A stretch of 64,000 bases of DNA from Minisyncoccota bacterium (GCA_031291875.1 JARLIE010000040.1:132088-196087), one strand, 5' to 3'. Positions 1,516 through 38,663 are shown, counted from the first letter of the stretch. A program made the numbers and translations. Notes: generated by a model not told the origin, from the letters alone.

Positions 1516-3756
1516 CTATTGGGTGTCTTCTTGTTCGGCTGCTCGGACCAGATCGTCAGCATTGCCTGCCCCGATAACGTCGCGAGGCTTTGCGCCATCT
1601 GCGGGACCAACGACACCGCGCTCTTCAAGCATGTCTATAAGCTTTGCCGCTCGCGCGTAGCCGATGCCCAATTTGCGCTGCAGGTAGGAGGTCGAGGCCT
1701 TGCCGGCTTCGATAACCGTCTTTTTTGCTTCCGCGTAGAGCTCGTCTTCCTCCTCTTCATCTGCCATCGATGAGAATACGGTCTCAAGACCGCCGCCGAT
1801 CTTGCCGCTATCGCTGAAGTCGATTTCGCTCGGGAGCGTGCCTTCGGCGTTTTTGGCGATAAAGGCAACCACCTTCTTGACCTCGTTTTCAGAAATATAC
1901 GGGGCTTGGATGCGTCGCGGCTTGCTCATCTCTCCCGAAAGGAAAAGCATGTCGCCTGCGCCGAGGAGCTTTTCAGCGCCTCCGGTATCCAAAATGGTAC
2001 GCGAGTCGATCTGGGATGCCACCTGCAATGCGACGCGAGCGGGGATGTTGGCCTTGATGAGGCCAGTAATGACCTTTACGCTCGGGCGCTGGGTTGAGAG
2101 TATAAGGTGAATACCCACAGCACGGCTCATCTGCGCGAGGCGGACGATGCCGGCTTCGAGCTCTCTCGGATAGGCTTGCATGATGTCGGCGAGCTCGTCG
2201 ATGATAACGATAATGTAGGGCATGGCCTCTGGCGGGGTCTGACCCTCTTTCACGCCGCGCTCGAGTGCTGGGGCCACTACGTTGGCGTGGTACGAACCAA
2301 TGTCGCGAACGCGCTCCGTTTCCAGGATGCCGTATCGGCGATCCATTTCTTTTGCGAGCCACTTCAGGGCGAGGATTGCTTTCTTCGGGTCGGTAATGAC
2401 GGGGGTGAGGAGGTGGGGGATTGAATTGTAGAGGGTCAATTCGACGCGCTTTGGATCCACCATGATAAATCGCAGTCGTTCTGGACCGCAGCGATACAGG
2501 AGAGAAACGATAAAGTCGTGGATGGCGACCGATTTGCCGGCGCCTGTCGCGCCCGCAACAAGCATGTGCGGCATCTTCGCCATGTCCGCATAGTGCGCCT
2601 GTCCCGTAATCGAGCGGCCGAGAGCCATCAAGAGTGGTTTGTCCGAATTTGCGTATTGCTCGTCCGTGACGAGCGGCGCGAGGCCGAGCGTTGTGCGGGC
2701 GATGTTGGGTACCTCAATACCGACGAGTGATTTCCCAGGAATCGGTGCCTCGATACGCACGGGGGAGGCCGCGAGCGCGAGCTCTAAGTTGGATTGCAGG
2801 GCGAGGATCTTCGAGAGGCGCACGCCTTCGGCCGGTTTCATCGCGTATCGCGTTACGGTGGGCCCGATCGACGCTTCGTCCATTTCAACTTGGATACCGA
2901 AGTTTTGTAGCGTGCGCTTGATGATGTTCATGTTGGCTTTTACATCGCCGACCTCAGGCTTACCTTTATTTTTTGAAAGAAGTGTTGCGGGCGGCGGTTC
3001 GTATGCGCTGCCGGTCGCGGCAATAATAGGGAAGCTGGCTTCCGAATCCGATTCCGCCTTATCGGCGAAACTGCTGACAGCCGGTTTTCGCTCGGGCACC
3101 GGTACCTCCTCGTGCTCGATTTCTTCCGGCTCGGGTTCTTCCATTTCCGCAGCCTCTTCCTCGTGGAAGCCGGTAACCGGAACCTCGTCCATCTCTTCTT
3201 CGCCGAACGCGACGTCTTCAGAATTTGATTGGAAGCGTTCTCGGATGCTCGTAAACAGCGCGGGGAGATTTGCGTCAAAAGCGATGATGAGCGCAGCTAC
3301 CATAAATGCCGTTAAGAAAACGACAGTCGCCGGAGTTGCGACTGATGAAACCAATGGGTTGGAAACGCTCGCGCCGATCACGCCGCCCTTGCTCGGAAAA
3401 GCAAGATTTATGAGACCAAGCGCCGAAAGCAAAAAGACCGCGAGACCCAATACCTGCACCCATCCGAAACGTTCCTCAAAGGAACGAAATATTTGTACCG
3501 AAAGCATGGCGAGCGAGAGCGGCAAGAGCCAGTAGCCAATTCCGAGCAGCCACGAGAGCCATGAGAAAAGCGTTTCACCGACGGCACCTCCACCACCTAA
3601 TTCCGCAATAATCAGAAAGCCAGCGAGTGCCAGAAAAAGGATGGCACCGACGCCTCGAAGAGCTTCGGAACTGACTCGCTTTTCTACGACTTTCGGCTGT
3701 GCACTCGTTTTGCCATTCGCCTTTTTCGCGACTTTCGCACGCTTCTTCTCTTTCAT
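1516..3756 (-). CDS. ftsK: DNA translocase FtsK/SpoIIIE
   Basis: 746 aa with N-terminal TM segments, an acidic linker, the FtsK motor P-loop (VAGATGAGKSV) and a C-terminal gamma winged-helix (TSYLQRKLGIGYARAAKLIDMLEERGVVGP). Confidence 0.9.
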   Translation of the reverse strand: MKEKKRAKVAKKANGKTSAQPKVVEKRVSSEALRGVGAILFLALAGFLIIAELGGGGAVGETLFSWLSWLLGIGYWLLPLSLAMLSVQIFRSFEERFGWVQVLGLAVFLLSALGLINLAFPSKGGVIGASVSNPLVSSVATPATVVFLTAFMVAALIIAFDANLPALFTSIRERFQSNSEDVAFGEEEMDEVPVTGFHEEEAAEMEEPEPEEIEHEEVPVPERKPAVSSFADKAESDSEASFPIIAATGSAYEPPPATLLSKNKGKPEVGDVKANMNIIKRTLQNFGIQVEMDEASIGPTVTRYAMKPAEGVRLSKILALQSNLELALAASPVRIEAPIPGKSLVGIEVPNIARTTLGLAPLVTDEQYANSDKPLLMALGRSITGQAHYADMAKMPHMLVAGATGAGKSVAIHDFIVSLLYRCGPERLRFIMVDPKRVELTLYNSIPHLLTPVITDPKKAILALKWLAKEMDRRYGILETERVRDIGSYHANVVAPALERGVKEGQTPPEAMPYIIVIIDELADIMQAYPRELEAGIVRLAQMSRAVGIHLILSTQRPSVKVITGLIKANIPARVALQVASQIDSRTILDTGGAEKLLGAGDMLFLSGEMSKPRRIQAPYISENEVKKVVAFIAKNAEGTLPSEIDFSDSGKIGGGLETVFSSMADEEEEDELYAEAKKTVIEAGKASTSYLQRKLGIGYARAAKLIDMLEERGVVGPADGAKPRDVIGAGNADDLVRAAEQEDTQ

Positions 3757-5357: not shown

Positions 5358-8300
5358 ATGAGTAAAGCATTAGCAACAAAGAAAGTTGCGGCTGCGCTCT
5401 TGGGCTTTGGAATGGTTCTTGCTTTCGCCACCACGGCGAGCGCACAGACCACTTCGTCAGCTTCGACGCTGTCGACGCTCCAAGCACAAGTTCAAGCGCT
5501 TCTCGCGCAAATCGCATCGCTCCAGGGCTCTGGTACATCCACGGGTTCCGGCGGCGCGTGCTTCACCTTCTCGGCGAATGAGCAAGTTGGCTCAAACGGC
5601 GGTCAGGTGATGTGGATCCAGGAGTTCCTCAACGGTCACGGCTTCCAAGTCGCGGCGACAGGTGCTGGTTCTCCGGGCAATGAAACGAGTCACTTTGGTC
5701 CGGCCACTAAGGCTGCGGTCATGAAGTTCCAGAGCTCGAACGGCATCTCGCCGGTCTCGGGTTACTGGGGACCTCTGAGCCGCGCTAAGGCCAATGCCAT
5801 CTGTGCCGGTTCTACGACTGGCACGGGTACAGGCACTGGTACTGGTACTGGCACGACTTCGGGAGCGGGTATCACCGTTACCGCAGGCGTCCAGCCGGCA
5901 AACTCGCTCGCTCCGGTTAACGCAAGCCGCGTTCCGTTCACGACGTTCACGCTATCCAACAACACTGGCAGCGCGGTAACGATCAACGGCATCACGGTTC
6001 AGCGCACGGGCCTCGCGAATGACAACGCCTTCGCTGGTGTTATTCTTCTCGACTCGAACGGTCTCCAATACGGCAACTCACAAACCTTCAACTCGAACCA
6101 CCAGGCGACGGTTGGCGGTACATTCACTCTCAATCCGGGTCAGTCAATGACTTACACGATTGCGGGTAATATGGAAACGATCGCGAACAGTAACTCTGGT
6201 CAGATCGCTTCTGTCTCGGTTGTCGGTGTCAATACTTCGGTTCCGGTCTCTGGCTCGCTCCCGATTACGGGCGCGCAACAGACGATCAACGAGTCGTTGA
6301 CGATTGGTACTGCATCTCTCAGCAACTCCGGTTACGACCCGAACGGTTACCGCTCGAATTCGATCGGTACAACGGGCCTTACGTTCTCCGCCCTCCGCAT
6401 CACTGCTGGATCGGCTGAAGACGAGAAGCTCTACTCGATCACGTGGAACCAGACTGGTTCTGCTGGTTCGCAGGACATTGGCAACCTCAAGACGGTTGTT
6501 AACGGCACGAGCTACCCGGTAACGGTTGACGCTTCTGGTAAATACTTCACTTCGCAATTCGCGGGAGGTATCTTGATCCCGAAGGGTCAGTCTGTTGATG
6601 CGTACATTCAGGGTGACCTCACTGGCTCTACTGCCGCAGGTCGCACTGTAGAGTTCGACGTCTACCGCGCTTCCGACATTTACGTCGTTGGTCAAACGTT
6701 CGGCTACGGCATCACGCCGAGCAGCCCGAACTTGACCGCATGTAGTGCAACTGGCACGATTGGTACGAACTGTCTCGACACTGCGTCGAGTCACGGATCG
6801 CACTACTCGTACAACTCGAACCCGCTCTTCCAGGGCTCGAGCATGTCGATTACAGCCGGTACGTTGTCGACGGTCTCAACTGCGAGCTCCGTTGCTCCGC
6901 AGAATATTGCGATCAATGTCCCGAATCAGATTCTCGGTGGATTCCAGACGAACTTCACTGGTGAACCTGTTACGGTCAACAGCGTCACAGTTAGTGTTGC
7001 GACCAGCTCCACAAACACCGACCAGCTCAAGAGCGTTACCTTGGTTGACTCCAATGGCAATGTTGTTGCTGGCCCGGTTGACGAGAATGTGAGCACTGGG
7101 AAAATCATTTTCAGTAGCTCAGTCACCTTCCCGGTTGGACCGATGACGTACACCATTAAGGGTACGGTTGGTTCCAACGCGGGTAACGGCGGCACCTACA
7201 TCTTGTCGACGAACCCAGGTACTCAGTGGTCGAGCGCTATCGGCCAGACCTCTGGTAACTACGTAACGCTCCCGAGCACGACCATCACCATGAGCACCAT
7301 GACGGTGCAGGCTGGTCAGCTCAACATCTCGGCTTCGGCTTCGCCGGCATCGTCGAACATCACGACGAATACCAACAACTACACGGTTGCGAACATCGTA
7401 CTCGATGCCTCGCAGTCGGGTGAGGACGTTCGCTTGAACGCACTCCCGATCGTTGTTAACGCGACGTCGACTTCGGGTGACCAGACTTCGGCAAACTTGC
7501 TTAAGTCGAATCTCACGAACTGTCAATTGTTCAACGGCAGCAATGCGCTCAACAGCCAATCGGTTGGTTCGAGCCAGTGGACCGTTCAGAACACGTCAGG
7601 CAGCATCTACGGTCTTGAAGCGAACTTCATCTTCACGAACTCGCTTACGGTTCCGAAAGGCACGACTGTTACACTTTCGCTCGTCTGCAACATTGGCGGT
7701 GGTCTCTTCCCTGCAGAAACCTTCAACGCTGGTGTCGCTTCGGGCTTCGCTCCTACAGTTACGGGCGCGACCTCGGGTAACACTCTTAGCGCAACTCCGA
7801 CCACGAGCTCCTCGGGTACGATGACCGTTGGTACGGCAAGCATGACTGCTTCCGTCCCGACCCCGCTCTCGTACGCGCTGGTCTCTGGTGGCACACAGAA
7901 CGTCACAGTTGGAACTTTCACGCTCCAGCCGACGACGGGCAATGTCAGCCTCCAGAACCTCGGACTTGCTCTTAACTCGAATTACGCTTCCAGCTCCGAC
8001 CTCGCCAACGGCGTCGTCACGATCTGGAACGGTTCGACGCAGATTGGTACGGCCAACTTCAGCGGCAAATCGCCGATTGGTCACTACTACATCGCGACGT
8101 CTACGATCACGAACTTCAATCTTCCGCAAAACATCCAGACCACTCTTACCCTCAAGGCGAACATTGCTGCGATTGGTATCGGTCAATCTGGCATGAGCGG
8201 TCATGAACTCAAGATCGGTCTCGCAGAAGCTCAGGGTACATCGGGCAATAGCTCGGTTGATACTGGCTACACCACATCGAACGTACCGTCCAACGGTATC

Positions 8301-18792: not shown

Positions 18793-19137
18793 CCGCAGCA
18801 CATATGGTGTTCGGAATGAGGGCGAAAAGGCGGCAACCGTAATGCGGGGGGAACCCCCACACCAAGGTGGCCGCGAAAGCGGCCTTTTTCACGCTTGAAA
18901 AAGCACGAAATCATATGTTGCTCGTTGAAAACTGAAGAGCGACACAAGAAAGAATCAAACGTTCCGTTTGGGTTATAAGTCTTTCCCGAACGGAATGCAG
19001 GAATCCGCCGTAAGGCGGGCAAAAAGAAAACATCAAGTCGCGTCTTCCTCTTGTAGGGAAGATGCGCAGTTCTCGTGAAAAAGCAGCGGTGTTTTTTCAC
19101 GAGACGTAATACGCGGTTCTCAGAATTCCTAGCGGGA

Positions 19138-22095
<2,958 letters not shown>

Positions 22096-22230
22096 CTCGA
22101 AAGGAATTGTGAGAGTCGCGTTAACGAATTGTTTTCTCTGTTTTGCCGGAATAGTGCACGCACTATTCTGCGCAAATATTTCTTGTGTCGCTCTTCGGTT
22201 TTCAGCGCAGCCGAAGTTCTTTGAATGTTT

Positions 22231-22342
22231 TGTGTTGGTGCTTCATCGGAGGGGTCACACCCGTTCTCTTTCCGAACACGGCAGTTAAGCCCTCTTGAGG
22301 CGATGGTAGTCGAAAGGCGAGAGTAGCTAGGCGCCAACACAA
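22231..22342 (+). rRNA. rrf: 5S ribosomal RNA
   Basis: Helix I pairs tgtgttggtgc with gcgccaacaca. Internal ccgaacacggcagttaagcc...gatggtagtcgaaaggcgagagtagctaggcgcc matches 5S loop C/helix IV-V conservation. Confidence 0.75.
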
Positions 22343-22404
22343 ACTATTCAAAGAATTCTCTCATTCCGTCATTTTATTCGGCAGGCAAACCTGCCGGCGG
22401 GGCA

Positions 22405-22463
22405 GTTAAGCCCTTCTGTGCTGATGGTAGTCGAAAGGCGAGAGTAGCTAGGCGCCGGGAAAA
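22405..22463 (+). repeat. direct duplicate of the 3' ~57 nt of 5S rRNA (5S fragment/pseudogene)
   Basis: gcagttaagccc.tct.gtgctgatggtagtcgaaaggcgagagtagctaggcgcc recurs ~65 nt after the complete 5S. The 5' half of 5S is missing from the second copy. Confidence 0.7.
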
Positions 22464-22465
22464 AG

Positions 22466-22948
22466 CTATTCCTCTGACTCAAGATTTATCTCGAGAGGAA
22501 TTCTGTCTACCTCAGTGAAGCCTTCTTCGCCAGCTTCTTTTATTAGAACTACAATCGTGTACTCCCCGCTATCGTCAACGGGCAAAGGAGAGAACTTACT
22601 TCGTATGCGAATACTTTTAATACCCTTTTGAATCCCAAAATTATTCGGAGGCAACTCTGCGATAGTATTGCCCTTTGGATTTACAAATTCATATTTAATC
22701 TCGAAAGCTACCGGGTCATCTATTTTTTTTGAAAATCGAGATATTATCTCGAATTCGAACGGAAATGCGTAGCCGTTTGCATTCTCGAGTCTTTTTTGTT
22801 CAAGCATTTCTTTGGTAATTTGAACCGTGAATTTCTCGATCAGATTGTTCAGGCTTAGGTTGTTTGTATCCGCACTCAATACTGAAGAGCTGCAGAGTAC
22901 GGAAAAAAGATGCCTGAGGTTTTTTGTACCGATTTCTTTAAAATTCAT
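22466..22948 (-). CDS. hypothetical protein, third gene of the toxin-antitoxin-like operon
   Basis: ATG overlaps the antitoxin stop as ATGA (translational coupling). 160 aa, AT-rich codons, no recognisable motif. Confidence 0.5.
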   Translation of the reverse strand: MNFKEIGTKNLRHLFSVLCSSSVLSADTNNLSLNNLIEKFTVQITKEMLEQKRLENANGYAFPFEFEIISRFSKKIDDPVAFEIKYEFVNPKGNTIAELPPNNFGIQKGIKSIRIRSKFSPLPVDDSGEYTIVVLIKEAGEEGFTEVDRIPLEINLESEE

Positions 22949-23382
22949 ACGCGAATGTAACTGTAACCCGTTATTGTTCCAAGCCTTTCCTTCGGGGACT
23001 CAGTATTTGCATCTGAAGATGCACTTTTGATCGACAGATCGTTTCGTTGAATAAAACTTGGAATCAATTTCTCGGAAACTTCCTGATCATTTATTGCTGT
23101 AAAGAAATTCGGATTTCCAAAACGCACTTCAAGATAGGTTTTAAAATGGTCAGCGATCTTCTTTAGTGTAGTTAAGTTCGGTAACTGAGCTCCGTTTTCC
23201 AATCGAGAAATCCCAGATTGTTTCGTGCCAATTGCTTCAGCGAGTTGCAGTTGTGTAAGATTCCTCTCAACTCTATTTCGTTCTATTTCACGACCTATCT
23301 GATAAGCAAGGTCTTGTTTAATCTCCAAATCAATGTTTGGGTTTTTTTCACGTATCTTAGTTTTGTAGGTCTTTAGGTCCAT
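22945..23382 (-). CDS. higA: XRE-family HTH antitoxin (HigA-like) with ~70-aa C-terminal extension
   Basis: HTH LTQLQLAEAIGTKQSGISRLENGAQLPNLTTLKKIADHF. Start taken at MDLKTY (ATG 23382) inside the 3' end of the toxin gene. The ORF track's upstream start at 23445 would overlap the toxin by 88 nt. Confidence 0.7.
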   Translation of the reverse strand: MDLKTYKTKIREKNPNIDLEIKQDLAYQIGREIERNRVERNLTQLQLAEAIGTKQSGISRLENGAQLPNLTTLKKIADHFKTYLEVRFGNPNFFTAINDQEVSEKLIPSFIQRNDLSIKSASSDANTESPKERLGTITGYSYIRV

Positions 23383-23743
23383 AGTTTTCAGGTATATTCT
23401 TAATTCTCTCTCGAGCAGATTTGATATGCGTTTTTGGAATATCACCGATTTTCTTTTTCACGAACCCATGTACAAGAATAATTTTGTTTCCGCGAAGACA
23501 TCCTATCAATCGGATTTTCTTTCCCTTATGTTCGATACGAAGATATAGGAGTCCATCTTGAGGGAAACGAATTTTCTCTTTTCGGAACAGTTCGTCTAAA
23601 TATCGTCCATCGAAGCCCTCTTCGAGCATTTCAGCAATTTCGAGCGCTGCAATTTCTCCGAGTGAGTCAAGGAATTCAGCTACATGACATCTTCCGCCGC
23701 CCGATTCATCTTCCCAGAACTCAATGCGGACGGTTTGTTCCAT
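23357..23743 (-). CDS. higB: Gp49-like (DUF891) HigB/RelE-superfamily toxin
   Basis: LYLRIEHKGKKIRLIGCLRGNKIILVHGFVKKKIGDIPKTHIKSARERIKNI matches the Gp49/HigB signature (...yRi.y....iillhgF.KKtqktP..ei..A..R...). Gene order toxin then HTH antitoxin is typical of higBA. Confidence 0.7.
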   Translation of the reverse strand: MEQTVRIEFWEDESGGGRCHVAEFLDSLGEIAALEIAEMLEEGFDGRYLDELFRKEKIRFPQDGLLYLRIEHKGKKIRLIGCLRGNKIILVHGFVKKKIGDIPKTHIKSARERIKNIPENYGPKDLQN

Positions 23744-23770
23744 AATCTATTAAATTCGACCATATATATT

Positions 23771-23792
23771 GATATAACATTGATGTTATATC
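23771..23792. promoter_or_regulatory. perfect 10-2-10 palindrome (GATATAACAT tg ATGTTATATC), candidate operator of the higBA-like operon
   Basis: Lies ~30 nt upstream of the toxin start codon in the AT-rich promoter region. Type II TA operons are typically autorepressed at such palindromes. Confidence 0.5.
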
Positions 23793-23857
23793 CAATTATT
23801 AAGACGGTCAAGTGTTTCCAGGCTTACAATGCTCAGTAAGTCGAGTACAATTAAAAA

Positions 23858-35854: not shown

Positions 35855-36206
35855 TGGCCGACCATCGCTCCTGATGGCCTTTTCTTTGGAATCTTTGCGG
35901 TTCCAAAAGAATCGCTCAAGCATCATCTCGATGCAGAGCCTTTCAACCGAAACGTCGGCGGAGCATGGTTGAACTTTGAAAACTGAATAAAGAAGATTGT
36001 ACGCATCAAGATCGAAGCAATTCGATCGTTGGTAAGTAAACACACAAAAAAACAGTAAGTGGAAGGAAAGTATGGTATCCGAACGGATAGTTCGGATAGC
36101 ACATTCTTTTGTTCCGTCCATCCTAAGAAAGAGTAAGAAACAAATTCTAGAAGCCTCTCGTTGCCGATTCATTCGGCCGACGCTTCGAAGGTAAAATTAC
36201 TTTTAC

Positions 36207-37657
<1,451 letters not shown>

Positions 37658-37938
37658 AAAAATTGACCTTTCTGCCTTTAGTGGTGGATCGAGTCGAGTC
37701 GATTCGTGTGTCTCGATCGAGCACATGAGGGAAATGGCATTCATCCCAAAATGATGCCTGACAACTCGCAAAGACGAGTGTTTGGACGGAACAAAAGAGT
37801 GTAAATCCAAATCCAAGTACTGTGTGTGTTACAAAACAAAATAGGCCGCCCAAAGCGGTCTCTTTTGCGTTGGGCCGAACGATGCTAGGCTGAATGAGGT
37901 CACGCTCTCACCGCATAAGAGGGCAGGAGGGAACGATC

Positions 37939-38589: not shown

Positions 38590-38663
38590 GCGCTAGTAGT
38601 TCAGTGGTAGAACGCTGTCCTGATAAGACAGAGGTCGTAGGTCCGATTCCTACCTAGCGCACC
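38590..38663 (+). tRNA. tRNA-Ile (anticodon GAT)
   Basis: Manual fold: acceptor GCGCTAG/CTAGCGC, D-stem GTTC/GAAC, anticodon stem CTGTC/GACAG with loop CTGATAA, 5-nt variable loop, T-stem GTAGG/CCTAC, discriminator A. CCA not fully encoded. Confidence 0.8.

Follow-up and report, generated by a model that had tools for sequence, protein, structure and literature searches.

A DUF6941-like beta-sandwich protein as the candidate third component of a Gp49-XRE toxin-antitoxin module in a Minisyncoccota bacterium

Three-part toxin-antitoxin-chaperone (TAC) modules, in which a gene for a SecB-like chaperone follows a HigBA, HicAB or MqsRA toxin-antitoxin (TA) pair (PMC5105189; bioRxiv 10.1101/2024.02.24.581848), are the closest described systems to the operon analysed here, which ends in the open reading frame (ORF) at positions 22466-22948 of a stretch of 64,000 nucleotides from a Minisyncoccota bacterium (GCA_031291875.1, JARLIE010000040.1:132088-196087; hereafter, the window). 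The antitoxin of TAC modules carries a C-terminal 'chaperone addiction' (ChAD) extension that is intrinsically disordered, poorly conserved, contains aromatic residues and is absent in two-gene relatives, and that makes the antitoxin prone to aggregation and proteolysis unless it is bound by the chaperone (PMC5105189; bioRxiv 10.1101/2024.02.24.581848). The ChAD can be transferred among TA families and, in the HigBAC system of E. coli, a phage tail protein competes with it at the chaperone, which triggers the toxin (PMC5105189; bioRxiv 10.1101/2024.02.24.581848). HigB1 of M. tuberculosis, encoded in a toxin-then-antitoxin order, is listed under the Pfam family gp49 (PMC11980606).

The operon in the window shows the genomic logic of these modules. 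As in M. tuberculosis Rv1955-1956-1957 (HigB1-HigA1-SecB^TA), E. coli HigBAC and CmdTAC, its genes are ordered as toxin, antitoxin and third gene; the toxin belongs, like HigB1, to the Gp49/HigB Pfam family; the antitoxin ends in a poorly conserved C-terminal extension of the kind (ca. 40-70 amino acids) that two-gene relatives lack; and members of the third-gene family accompany several TA families that are unrelated to each other, HigBA-like and HicAB among them. However, the third protein has neither the fold nor the homology of SecB and, because this homology defines the SecB-type TAC family and was looked for and not found, its sequence places the system outside that family. The DUF6941-like genes also differ in their partners, which include DUF2283, DUF4926 and a new family of ca. 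200 amino acids, with no MqsRA pair seen, and in being strongly represented in Patescibacteria/CPR (candidate phyla radiation), while a chaperone function and addiction are proposed for them by analogy. On the most economical reading, to which we assign a probability of about one in two, the ORF completes a TA module of three genes, with a product that would bind the antitoxin tail and control the stability of the antitoxin by means of a fold other than that of SecB.

An earlier note on this DNA, made from the sequence alone, had described the ORF as an orphan, which our searches contradict. A word-indexed search retrieved seven intact homologues with 47-100% identity, all of 158-161 amino acids and sharing 40 invariant columns, so that the ORF is conserved at the same length; the identical one is annotated as a hypothetical protein in a metagenome-assembled genome (MAG) of Candidatus Pacebacteria. 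The first methionine and the N-terminus (GTKN..H.WS..C) are kept in all the close homologues, indicating that the assigned start of the gene is correct. A profile search widened the set to 19 proteins, and an exhaustive search of 1.84 billion representatives with a hidden Markov model (HMM) returned 1,458 proteins, typically of ca. 140-170 amino acids, at E ≤ 1e-3, of which 548 reached E ≤ 1e-10, the top 150 matches being all stand-alone proteins of 108-189 amino acids. Genome and viral scans with an alignment of the family (A1), as well as tblastn comparisons with phage and plasmid collections, gave no matches, and searches of PDB sequences retrieved nothing useful for the profile of the third ORF or for the toxin.

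The third protein has no above-threshold family in Pfam, NCBIfam, PHROG or PADLOC, and the statement that it contains no recognisable motif stands to this extent. It does not extend to a sub-threshold match to DUF6941, its sole family signal (E 0.014; 16.2 bits, with a gathering cut-off of 27), which aligns residues 61-138 with profile positions 29-114 of 125. Weak matches to DUF6941 were likewise obtained with 15 of the 19 relatives (alignment A2) at E ≤ 1, and with 23 out of 50 sampled relatives (alignment A4) at E ≤ 0.01, the best at 3e-7. Two relatives, P0149 and P0168, carry a precomputed PF22091 annotation, and the profile built from the seven close homologues matches P0149 at E 8.7e-19. 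Because the relatives match DUF6941, and because of this last hit, profile comparisons identify the third protein as a divergent member of the DUF6941 (PF22091) superfamily that lies below the Pfam gathering cut-off. In Pfam, DUF6941 comprises proteins of the same size class and is a family of unknown function, with no function or TA link recorded; it is also unmentioned in the literature that we searched, whose coverage is incomplete.

For a sample that did not depend on the gene neighbourhood, we scanned one genome per species with a back-translated N-terminal motif (H-x-W-S/T-h-h-C-x2-S-x2-D-x2-S/T-N/K-N-h-S-h). This yielded 66 genome loci and two loci from viral contigs, 68 in total, and every match lay inside an ORF of 134-173 amino acids, where complete. 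Around half of the genome loci are from Patescibacteria/CPR and the others from Chloroflexota, Myxococcota/Deltaproteobacteria, Gammaproteobacteria and Planctomycetota, among others. Only the absence of annotation would favour the idea that the third ORF is a chance ORF in AT-rich DNA and no real gene, and we give it practically no credit, as it is already refuted by the conserved homologues, by the ORFs of the same length in all 68 motif-selected loci and by a confident fold (see below).

The order toxin, antitoxin and third gene recurs in all the informative contigs containing close and distant (25% identity) homologues. A Gp49 toxin, a long XRE antitoxin of 128-160 amino acids and the third gene form a triad in loci L001, L003, L004, L005, L007/L008, L010/L011, L019-L021 and L024, including relatives whose third protein shows only 25-30% identity; the antitoxin of L003 was missed by the gene-calling pipeline, and is present at 3136-3543. 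In L002, a HicA toxin and an RHH/NikA-like antitoxin of 160 amino acids precede a third-gene homologue with 49% identity, and in L018 the third gene follows, with overlaps of 4 nucleotides, the genes for a 127-amino acid CHAP/DUF7689-like protein and for a protein of 217 amino acids without a known family. Together with the homologues of the same length, this recurrent order sustains the proposal that the ORF is a candidate novel TA-associated component. The two observations that the earlier note had named as refuting it, a lack of intact homologues and a lack of coupling to the antitoxin, were both looked for, and the outcome favoured the proposal each time.

We clustered the upstream same-strand neighbours of the 68 motif-selected loci and scanned them against Pfam. 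In 53 of these loci, an antitoxin or immunity-type gene is located directly upstream of the third gene: XRE helix-turn-helix (HTH) in 31, an unannotated family of ca. 200-234 amino acids (ESHEFAARLNVASD...FRYENPWDTALAVYLWLL...WWA) in nine, DUF2283 in six, DUF4926 in four, HicB in two and a SUKH-3 immunity protein in one; in the other 15, the upstream gene is unrelated or none is resolvable. The second gene upstream is the matching toxin, of the Gp49, DUF6883, DUF4258, HicA or DUF7689/CHAP-like type, with Gp49 found in 16 cases at E ≤ 1e-3 using Pfam and in 21 with a local HMM. The third gene therefore co-occurs with Gp49-XRE pairs across genomes and also with several unrelated TA families, and it lies directly downstream of antitoxins from at least five of them (XRE, HicB, DUF2283, DUF4926 and the unannotated family of ca. 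200 amino acids). Partners are also swapped among related third proteins: the one from L028, associated to DUF2283, is 70-72% identical to those from L069 and L077, associated to DUF4926, and the one from L002, whose partner is HicB, shares 49-50% identity with the window protein and with that of L003, both of which have XRE partners. In the 53 linked loci, the gap between antitoxin and third gene has a median of 2 nucleotides, is negative in 22 and does not exceed 25 nucleotides in 52.

Several features of these loci deserve mention in their own right. An unannotated pair made up of a DUF7689/CHAP/NlpC-P60-like protein of ca. 127-175 amino acids and a protein of ca. 195-234 amino acids without a known family recurs before the third gene in L018 (1978-3004), L032, L049, L063, L074-L076 and L082, and in the viral loci L091 and L092; it is a candidate new toxin-immunity pair. 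Two different genomes (L003 and L004) have the triad at one and the same conserved site, with yebC/ruvC on one side and ruvB on the other, and that of the window adjoins a 5S rRNA gene; these differing sites would indicate that a mobile cassette was inserted independently. Among the triads examined, the most distant one (L007/L008, 1-6600) is found in a small conflict island, close to a RES-Xre(MbcA/ParS) TA pair, an anti-defence-like gene of the Acb2/Tad1-hairpin type (PF24729) and a transposase of the IS91 family. In L010, a SocA/Panacea-domain (PF13274) gene (1800-2303) is located on the same short contig ca. 700 nucleotides downstream of the triad, Panacea being another promiscuous antitoxin-type module.

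The antitoxins that accompany the third gene have a C-terminal tail. Those of the DUF2283, DUF4926 and HicB classes extend 39-72 amino acids past a full-length match to their Pfam domain, which ends, respectively, at residues 50-64 in proteins of 89-111 amino acids, at residues 57-60 in proteins of 96-114 and at residues 92-108 in proteins of 155-180. XRE antitoxins have 38-71 residues beyond the strand that follows the HTH, with 57 in the window antitoxin. To obtain a contrast set, we searched viral contigs for a back-translated HTH motif and compared every locus again with HMMs of the third protein, of the toxin and of the XRE core, counting tails only in antitoxins that matched the full XRE core model. 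Tails of 39-71 amino acids were present in 47 out of 48 XRE antitoxins with a third gene; five of these 48 had been flagged at first as lacking it, their third ORF being cut by the contig end or the start of the longest ORF lying further upstream. In the sole exception, L086, a tail of 55 amino acids continues past a run of C in the +1 frame, which is a frameshift or an assembly error. Conversely, none of the eight XRE antitoxins without a third gene had such a tail, and they end 1-21 amino acids after the core, with a median of 2. These eight are from a second Gp49-XRE pair in L062 and from the viral loci L095, L097, L100, L112, L126, L128 and L131, and a Gp49-like toxin was detected upstream of five of them (the L062 pair, L100, L112, L128 and L131). 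The presence of the third gene goes with the extra antitoxin tail (Fisher's exact test, p = 6e-9, with L086 counted as an exception and relatedness uncorrected). Since the two-gene Gp49-XRE relatives end so close to the core, the tail is dispensable for the Gp49-XRE pair as such.

As to L086 itself, the frame of its antitoxin breaks at the C run (TTCCCCCCAAAG; locus positions 5641-6456) and its third gene also looks truncated, at 125 amino acids, so that it is either a decaying module or the result of MAG assembly errors. The tails are variable, with a median of 51 amino acids, ca. 30% hydrophobic residues and a median of five aromatic residues, and show no hydrophobic or aromatic enrichment at their extreme C-terminus. 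A motif resembling SP[IY]Q was considered as universal for the tails and discarded, being confined to one subgroup. The absence of a shared tail motif would mean either that recognition is loose, in the manner of holdases, or that the ligand is something other than the tail.

The third gene could also be a passenger, that is, an unrelated gene that hitch-hikes beside TA modules on mobile DNA and codes for some small protein, such as an Ig (immunoglobulin)-like one related to phages or to the envelope. Solo copies beside housekeeping genes (L022, L025/L071/L090, L037 and L040), structurally similar uncharacterised phage proteins (TM-score 0.6-0.7) and the foreign composition of the island in the window would agree with it. 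A passenger, however, predicts neither a fixed position nor a correlation with the tail, and the gene is always placed directly 3' of the antitoxin, in the same orientation and at a median gap of 2 nucleotides (53 loci), in five unrelated types of TA and in many phyla, together with a near-perfect correlation with the antitoxin tail. We therefore regard a mere passenger as very improbable.

In the window, a PF05973 toxin is followed directly by an HTH antitoxin (Table 1), a combination by which the pair is assigned to the type II TA systems. The last 26 nucleotides of the toxin gene overlap the start of the antitoxin, an ATG at 23382 (MDLKTYK...), in agreement with six aligned syntenic antitoxins that all begin with MD[LI][KR]. 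The antitoxin consists of an N-terminal helix, the HTH (residues ~28-85), a short strand (YLEVRF) and the tail, of which residues 89-132 are the lowest-confidence part of a single-sequence AlphaFold2 model (pLDDT <50), a weak indication of disorder.

Table 1. Features of the three-gene operon in the window
Feature	Position	Strand	Details
Gp49/HigB-type (RelE-fold) toxin, 128 aa	23357..23743	-	Pfam PF05973, E 1.6e-8, 34.9 bits (cut-off 23.9); phrog_2523
XRE/HigA-type antitoxin, 145 aa	22945..23382	-	HTH_3, E 2.9e-14, 53.3 bits (cut-off 23), residues 34-84
Antitoxin C-terminal tail, residues 89-145, 57 aa	22948..23118	-	Beyond the conserved core in alignments; poorly conserved; proposed docking/'addiction' element for the third protein
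Third gene	22466..22948	-	160-aa DUF6941-like protein, predicted beta sandwich
Putative sigma-70-like promoter upstream of the toxin	23783..23811	-	-35 TTGACC 23811-23806, -10 TAACAT 23788-23783 (consensus scan)
17+17-nt palindrome (ATATATTGATATAACAT / ATGTTATATCCAATTAT)	23764-23780 / 23783-23799	-	Inverted repeat I5, 82% complementary

The ATG of the third gene (22948-22946) overlaps the TGA of the antitoxin (22947-22945) as ATGA on the minus strand, in accordance with the earlier note, from which translational coupling had been proposed. A tight spacing to the antitoxin is kept in relatives, but the exact overlap of 4 nucleotides is not conserved; co-translation of the third gene may be expected from this spacing. 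Two further claims were also right: the protein has no transmembrane segment (maximum Kyte-Doolittle value of 0.77 in a 19-residue window), and the AT-rich composition of its gene resembles that of the TA genes and not that of the host. The GC content at third codon positions is 0.40 for the third gene, 0.34 for the antitoxin and 0.35 for the toxin, versus 0.65-0.70 for three flanking genes. Likewise, the overall GC content of the three operon genes is 0.39-0.41, with a window average of 0.534, and they are part of a low-GC island (22461-23857) with a value of 0.387.

The palindrome overlaps the predicted -10 of the toxin promoter and, judging by these consensus matches, is a candidate for the operator bound by the HTH antitoxin. 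This raises an alternative in which the third protein acts on the toxin-antitoxin complex or on the DNA operator, as a co-repressor or second neutraliser, and the tail serves another purpose, for example to wrap around the toxin. TA systems of three components in which the regulator is separate do exist, for instance PaaR-PaaA-ParE and omega-epsilon-zeta, and the lack of a shared tail motif would also be compatible with this. Nevertheless, an HTH is already present on the antitoxin, and the third protein is Ig-like and has no DNA-binding signature; the tail is missing from two-gene relatives of this toxin and antitoxin, and would thus not be needed for neutralisation; and toxins of at least five unrelated folds go with the same third protein, which speaks against a direct recognition of the toxin. 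Consequently, an action on the operator or on the complex appears rather improbable.

The AlphaFold2 model of the third protein, obtained with the alignment of 19 sequences, has a pLDDT of 93 and a pTM of 0.85, and contains twelve strands and one short helix (residues 46-55); the predicted fold is an Ig-like beta sandwich. Foldseek comparisons with the PDB returned as top matches PDE6-delta, RhoGDI, UNC119 and Wzt, with TM-scores of 0.3-0.5 and E values of ~1e-4, and comparisons with viral models gave uncharacterised phage proteins as the best matches, with TM-scores of 0.6-0.7. Structure prediction, one of the checks put forward for the ORF, thus gave a confident beta sandwich, but the accompanying Foldseek search gave no match informative on function. 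RhoGDI, PDE6-delta and UNC119 are, like the modelled third protein, small Ig-like sandwiches, and they bind the terminal tails of client proteins; however, their ligands are lipidated tails in eukaryotes, and the TM-scores, with identities of 8-15%, reflect a resemblance at the level of the fold for which we claim no homology. The model suggests a small binding module rather than an enzyme, with no specific function indicated. Foldseek retrieved no SecB-like structural match, and a SecB-like chaperone by homology was discarded for the third protein, which has no SecB match in Pfam and is modelled as an Ig-like sandwich.

We propose that the beta-sandwich protein would bind the C-terminal tail of the antitoxin, which is moderately hydrophobic and aromatic and would be unstructured otherwise, and that this binding would set the solubility or half-life of the antitoxin and, hence, whether the toxin stays neutralised. 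The third protein would then correspond in function to the SecB-like chaperone, with an unrelated fold, and the tail to the ChAD. It might also be a trigger point if, for example, a phage protein competed with the tail and freed the toxin, as in TAC modules. Binding of the tail by the sandwich, its stabilising direction and any role in phage defence are what we infer from the data above, which, as comparative evidence, speak strongly for a third component that is promiscuous and linked to the tail.

The same tail correlation and promiscuous pairing would be seen if the third protein were instead a tail-binding adaptor or sensor that destabilises the antitoxin, by delivering the tail to a protease or by holding it until a signal arrives, and thus a trigger and not a safety catch. 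Beta-rich adaptors for C-terminal degradation tags exist, such as SspB with ClpXP, and the chaperone of TAC modules is itself a phage sensor. On the other hand, a destabiliser that is permanently co-expressed and coupled would leave the operon self-toxic in the absence of tight regulation; TAC, the known precedent with the same genomic signature, is a stabiliser; and no protease gene was linked in the loci examined. We therefore consider a destabilising role unlikely.

Various observations weigh against the stabilising role that we favour. Its support is genomic, and tail-sandwich binding rests on inference; a generic Ig-like sandwich has no structural match informative on function, and the single-sequence AlphaFold2 model of the antitoxin, with an overall pLDDT of 50.6, is too low in confidence to establish that the tail is disordered. 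The comparison of tails is phylogenetically uncorrected, and seven of its eight controls come from viral contigs. A search for reduced-alphabet 3/4-mer enrichment in 51 non-redundant tails did not reveal any motif shared across classes, only a core-proximal GFM[DE]. Additionally, the tails of L028 and L069/L077 are not detectably similar although their third proteins are 70-72% identical, and the only pair of tails from different classes with a nominally significant resemblance, L002/L003, which share SPY[QY], has p = 0.01 and fails correction for 14 tests. Lastly, about one in five of the motif-selected loci (15 of 68) contain the third gene without a recognisable TA pair.

With the stabilising role as a basis, we tentatively suggest that these loci represent a second, structurally unrelated class of 'chaperone-addicted' TA, in which an Ig-fold DUF6941-like protein would recognise a disordered tail on antitoxins of at least five unrelated families and keep the antitoxin functional, possibly acting as a decoy or sensor displaced by phage proteins. 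This class would be widespread, with >1,400 sequence clusters, and particularly frequent in Patescibacteria/CPR. A comparable modular exchange is known for hyperpromiscuous TA modules such as Panacea (PanA) and the NetFlax network, where a single family is found in new combinations with many unrelated families of toxins and antitoxins (PMC10440598); however, Panacea is a domain inside the antitoxin of two-gene systems, and the DUF6941-like element is a separate third gene paired with a tail. The words three-gene, tripartite and third are absent from the NetFlax paper (PMC10440598), and a DUF6941-like or Ig-fold third TA component is undescribed in this paper, in a RelE/ParE survey, in the TAC papers and in our keyword searches, which cover the literature incompletely. 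Accordingly, we rate the family of the third protein as new, and the tripartite, tail-dependent TA architecture as known.

Tripartite TAC modules have so far been defined by SecB-like chaperones, and were recently shown to sense phage proteins. The case presented here suggests that the same architecture was reached a second time with an unrelated fold, by combining a detachable antitoxin tail with a dedicated partner gene that swaps families. If true, 'addiction tails' would be a general means of adding a layer of control or sensing to TA modules, a sizeable DUF family would receive its first function, and the poorly understood CPR bacteria would contain an abundant regulatory or defence module.

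The surroundings of the island in the window show some peculiarities of the rRNA genes. The 3' 56 nucleotides (22280-22335) of the 5S rRNA gene (22234-22339) are duplicated, with 91% identity, at 22401-22456, 121 nucleotides downstream; this partial copy, which alone gave no Rfam match and was discarded as an RNA gene, ends 9 nucleotides short of the third gene's stop codon, at the very point where the low-GC island begins. We discarded a simple flanking duplication of an att site, because both copies are on the same side of the island, and the partial copy may be the scar of an insertion or of an earlier rearrangement. A 25-nucleotide inverted repeat (22217-22241 / 22331-22355; 88% complementary) brackets the 5S rRNA gene, and is presumably a precursor processing stem. 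The rRNA genes are unlinked: the 23S-5S genes (19133-22339) are located ca. 14 kb upstream of the 16S gene (36202-37661), on the same strand, and are separated from it by protein-coding genes and the TA island, with two tRNA genes after the 16S gene, at 38590 and 40625.
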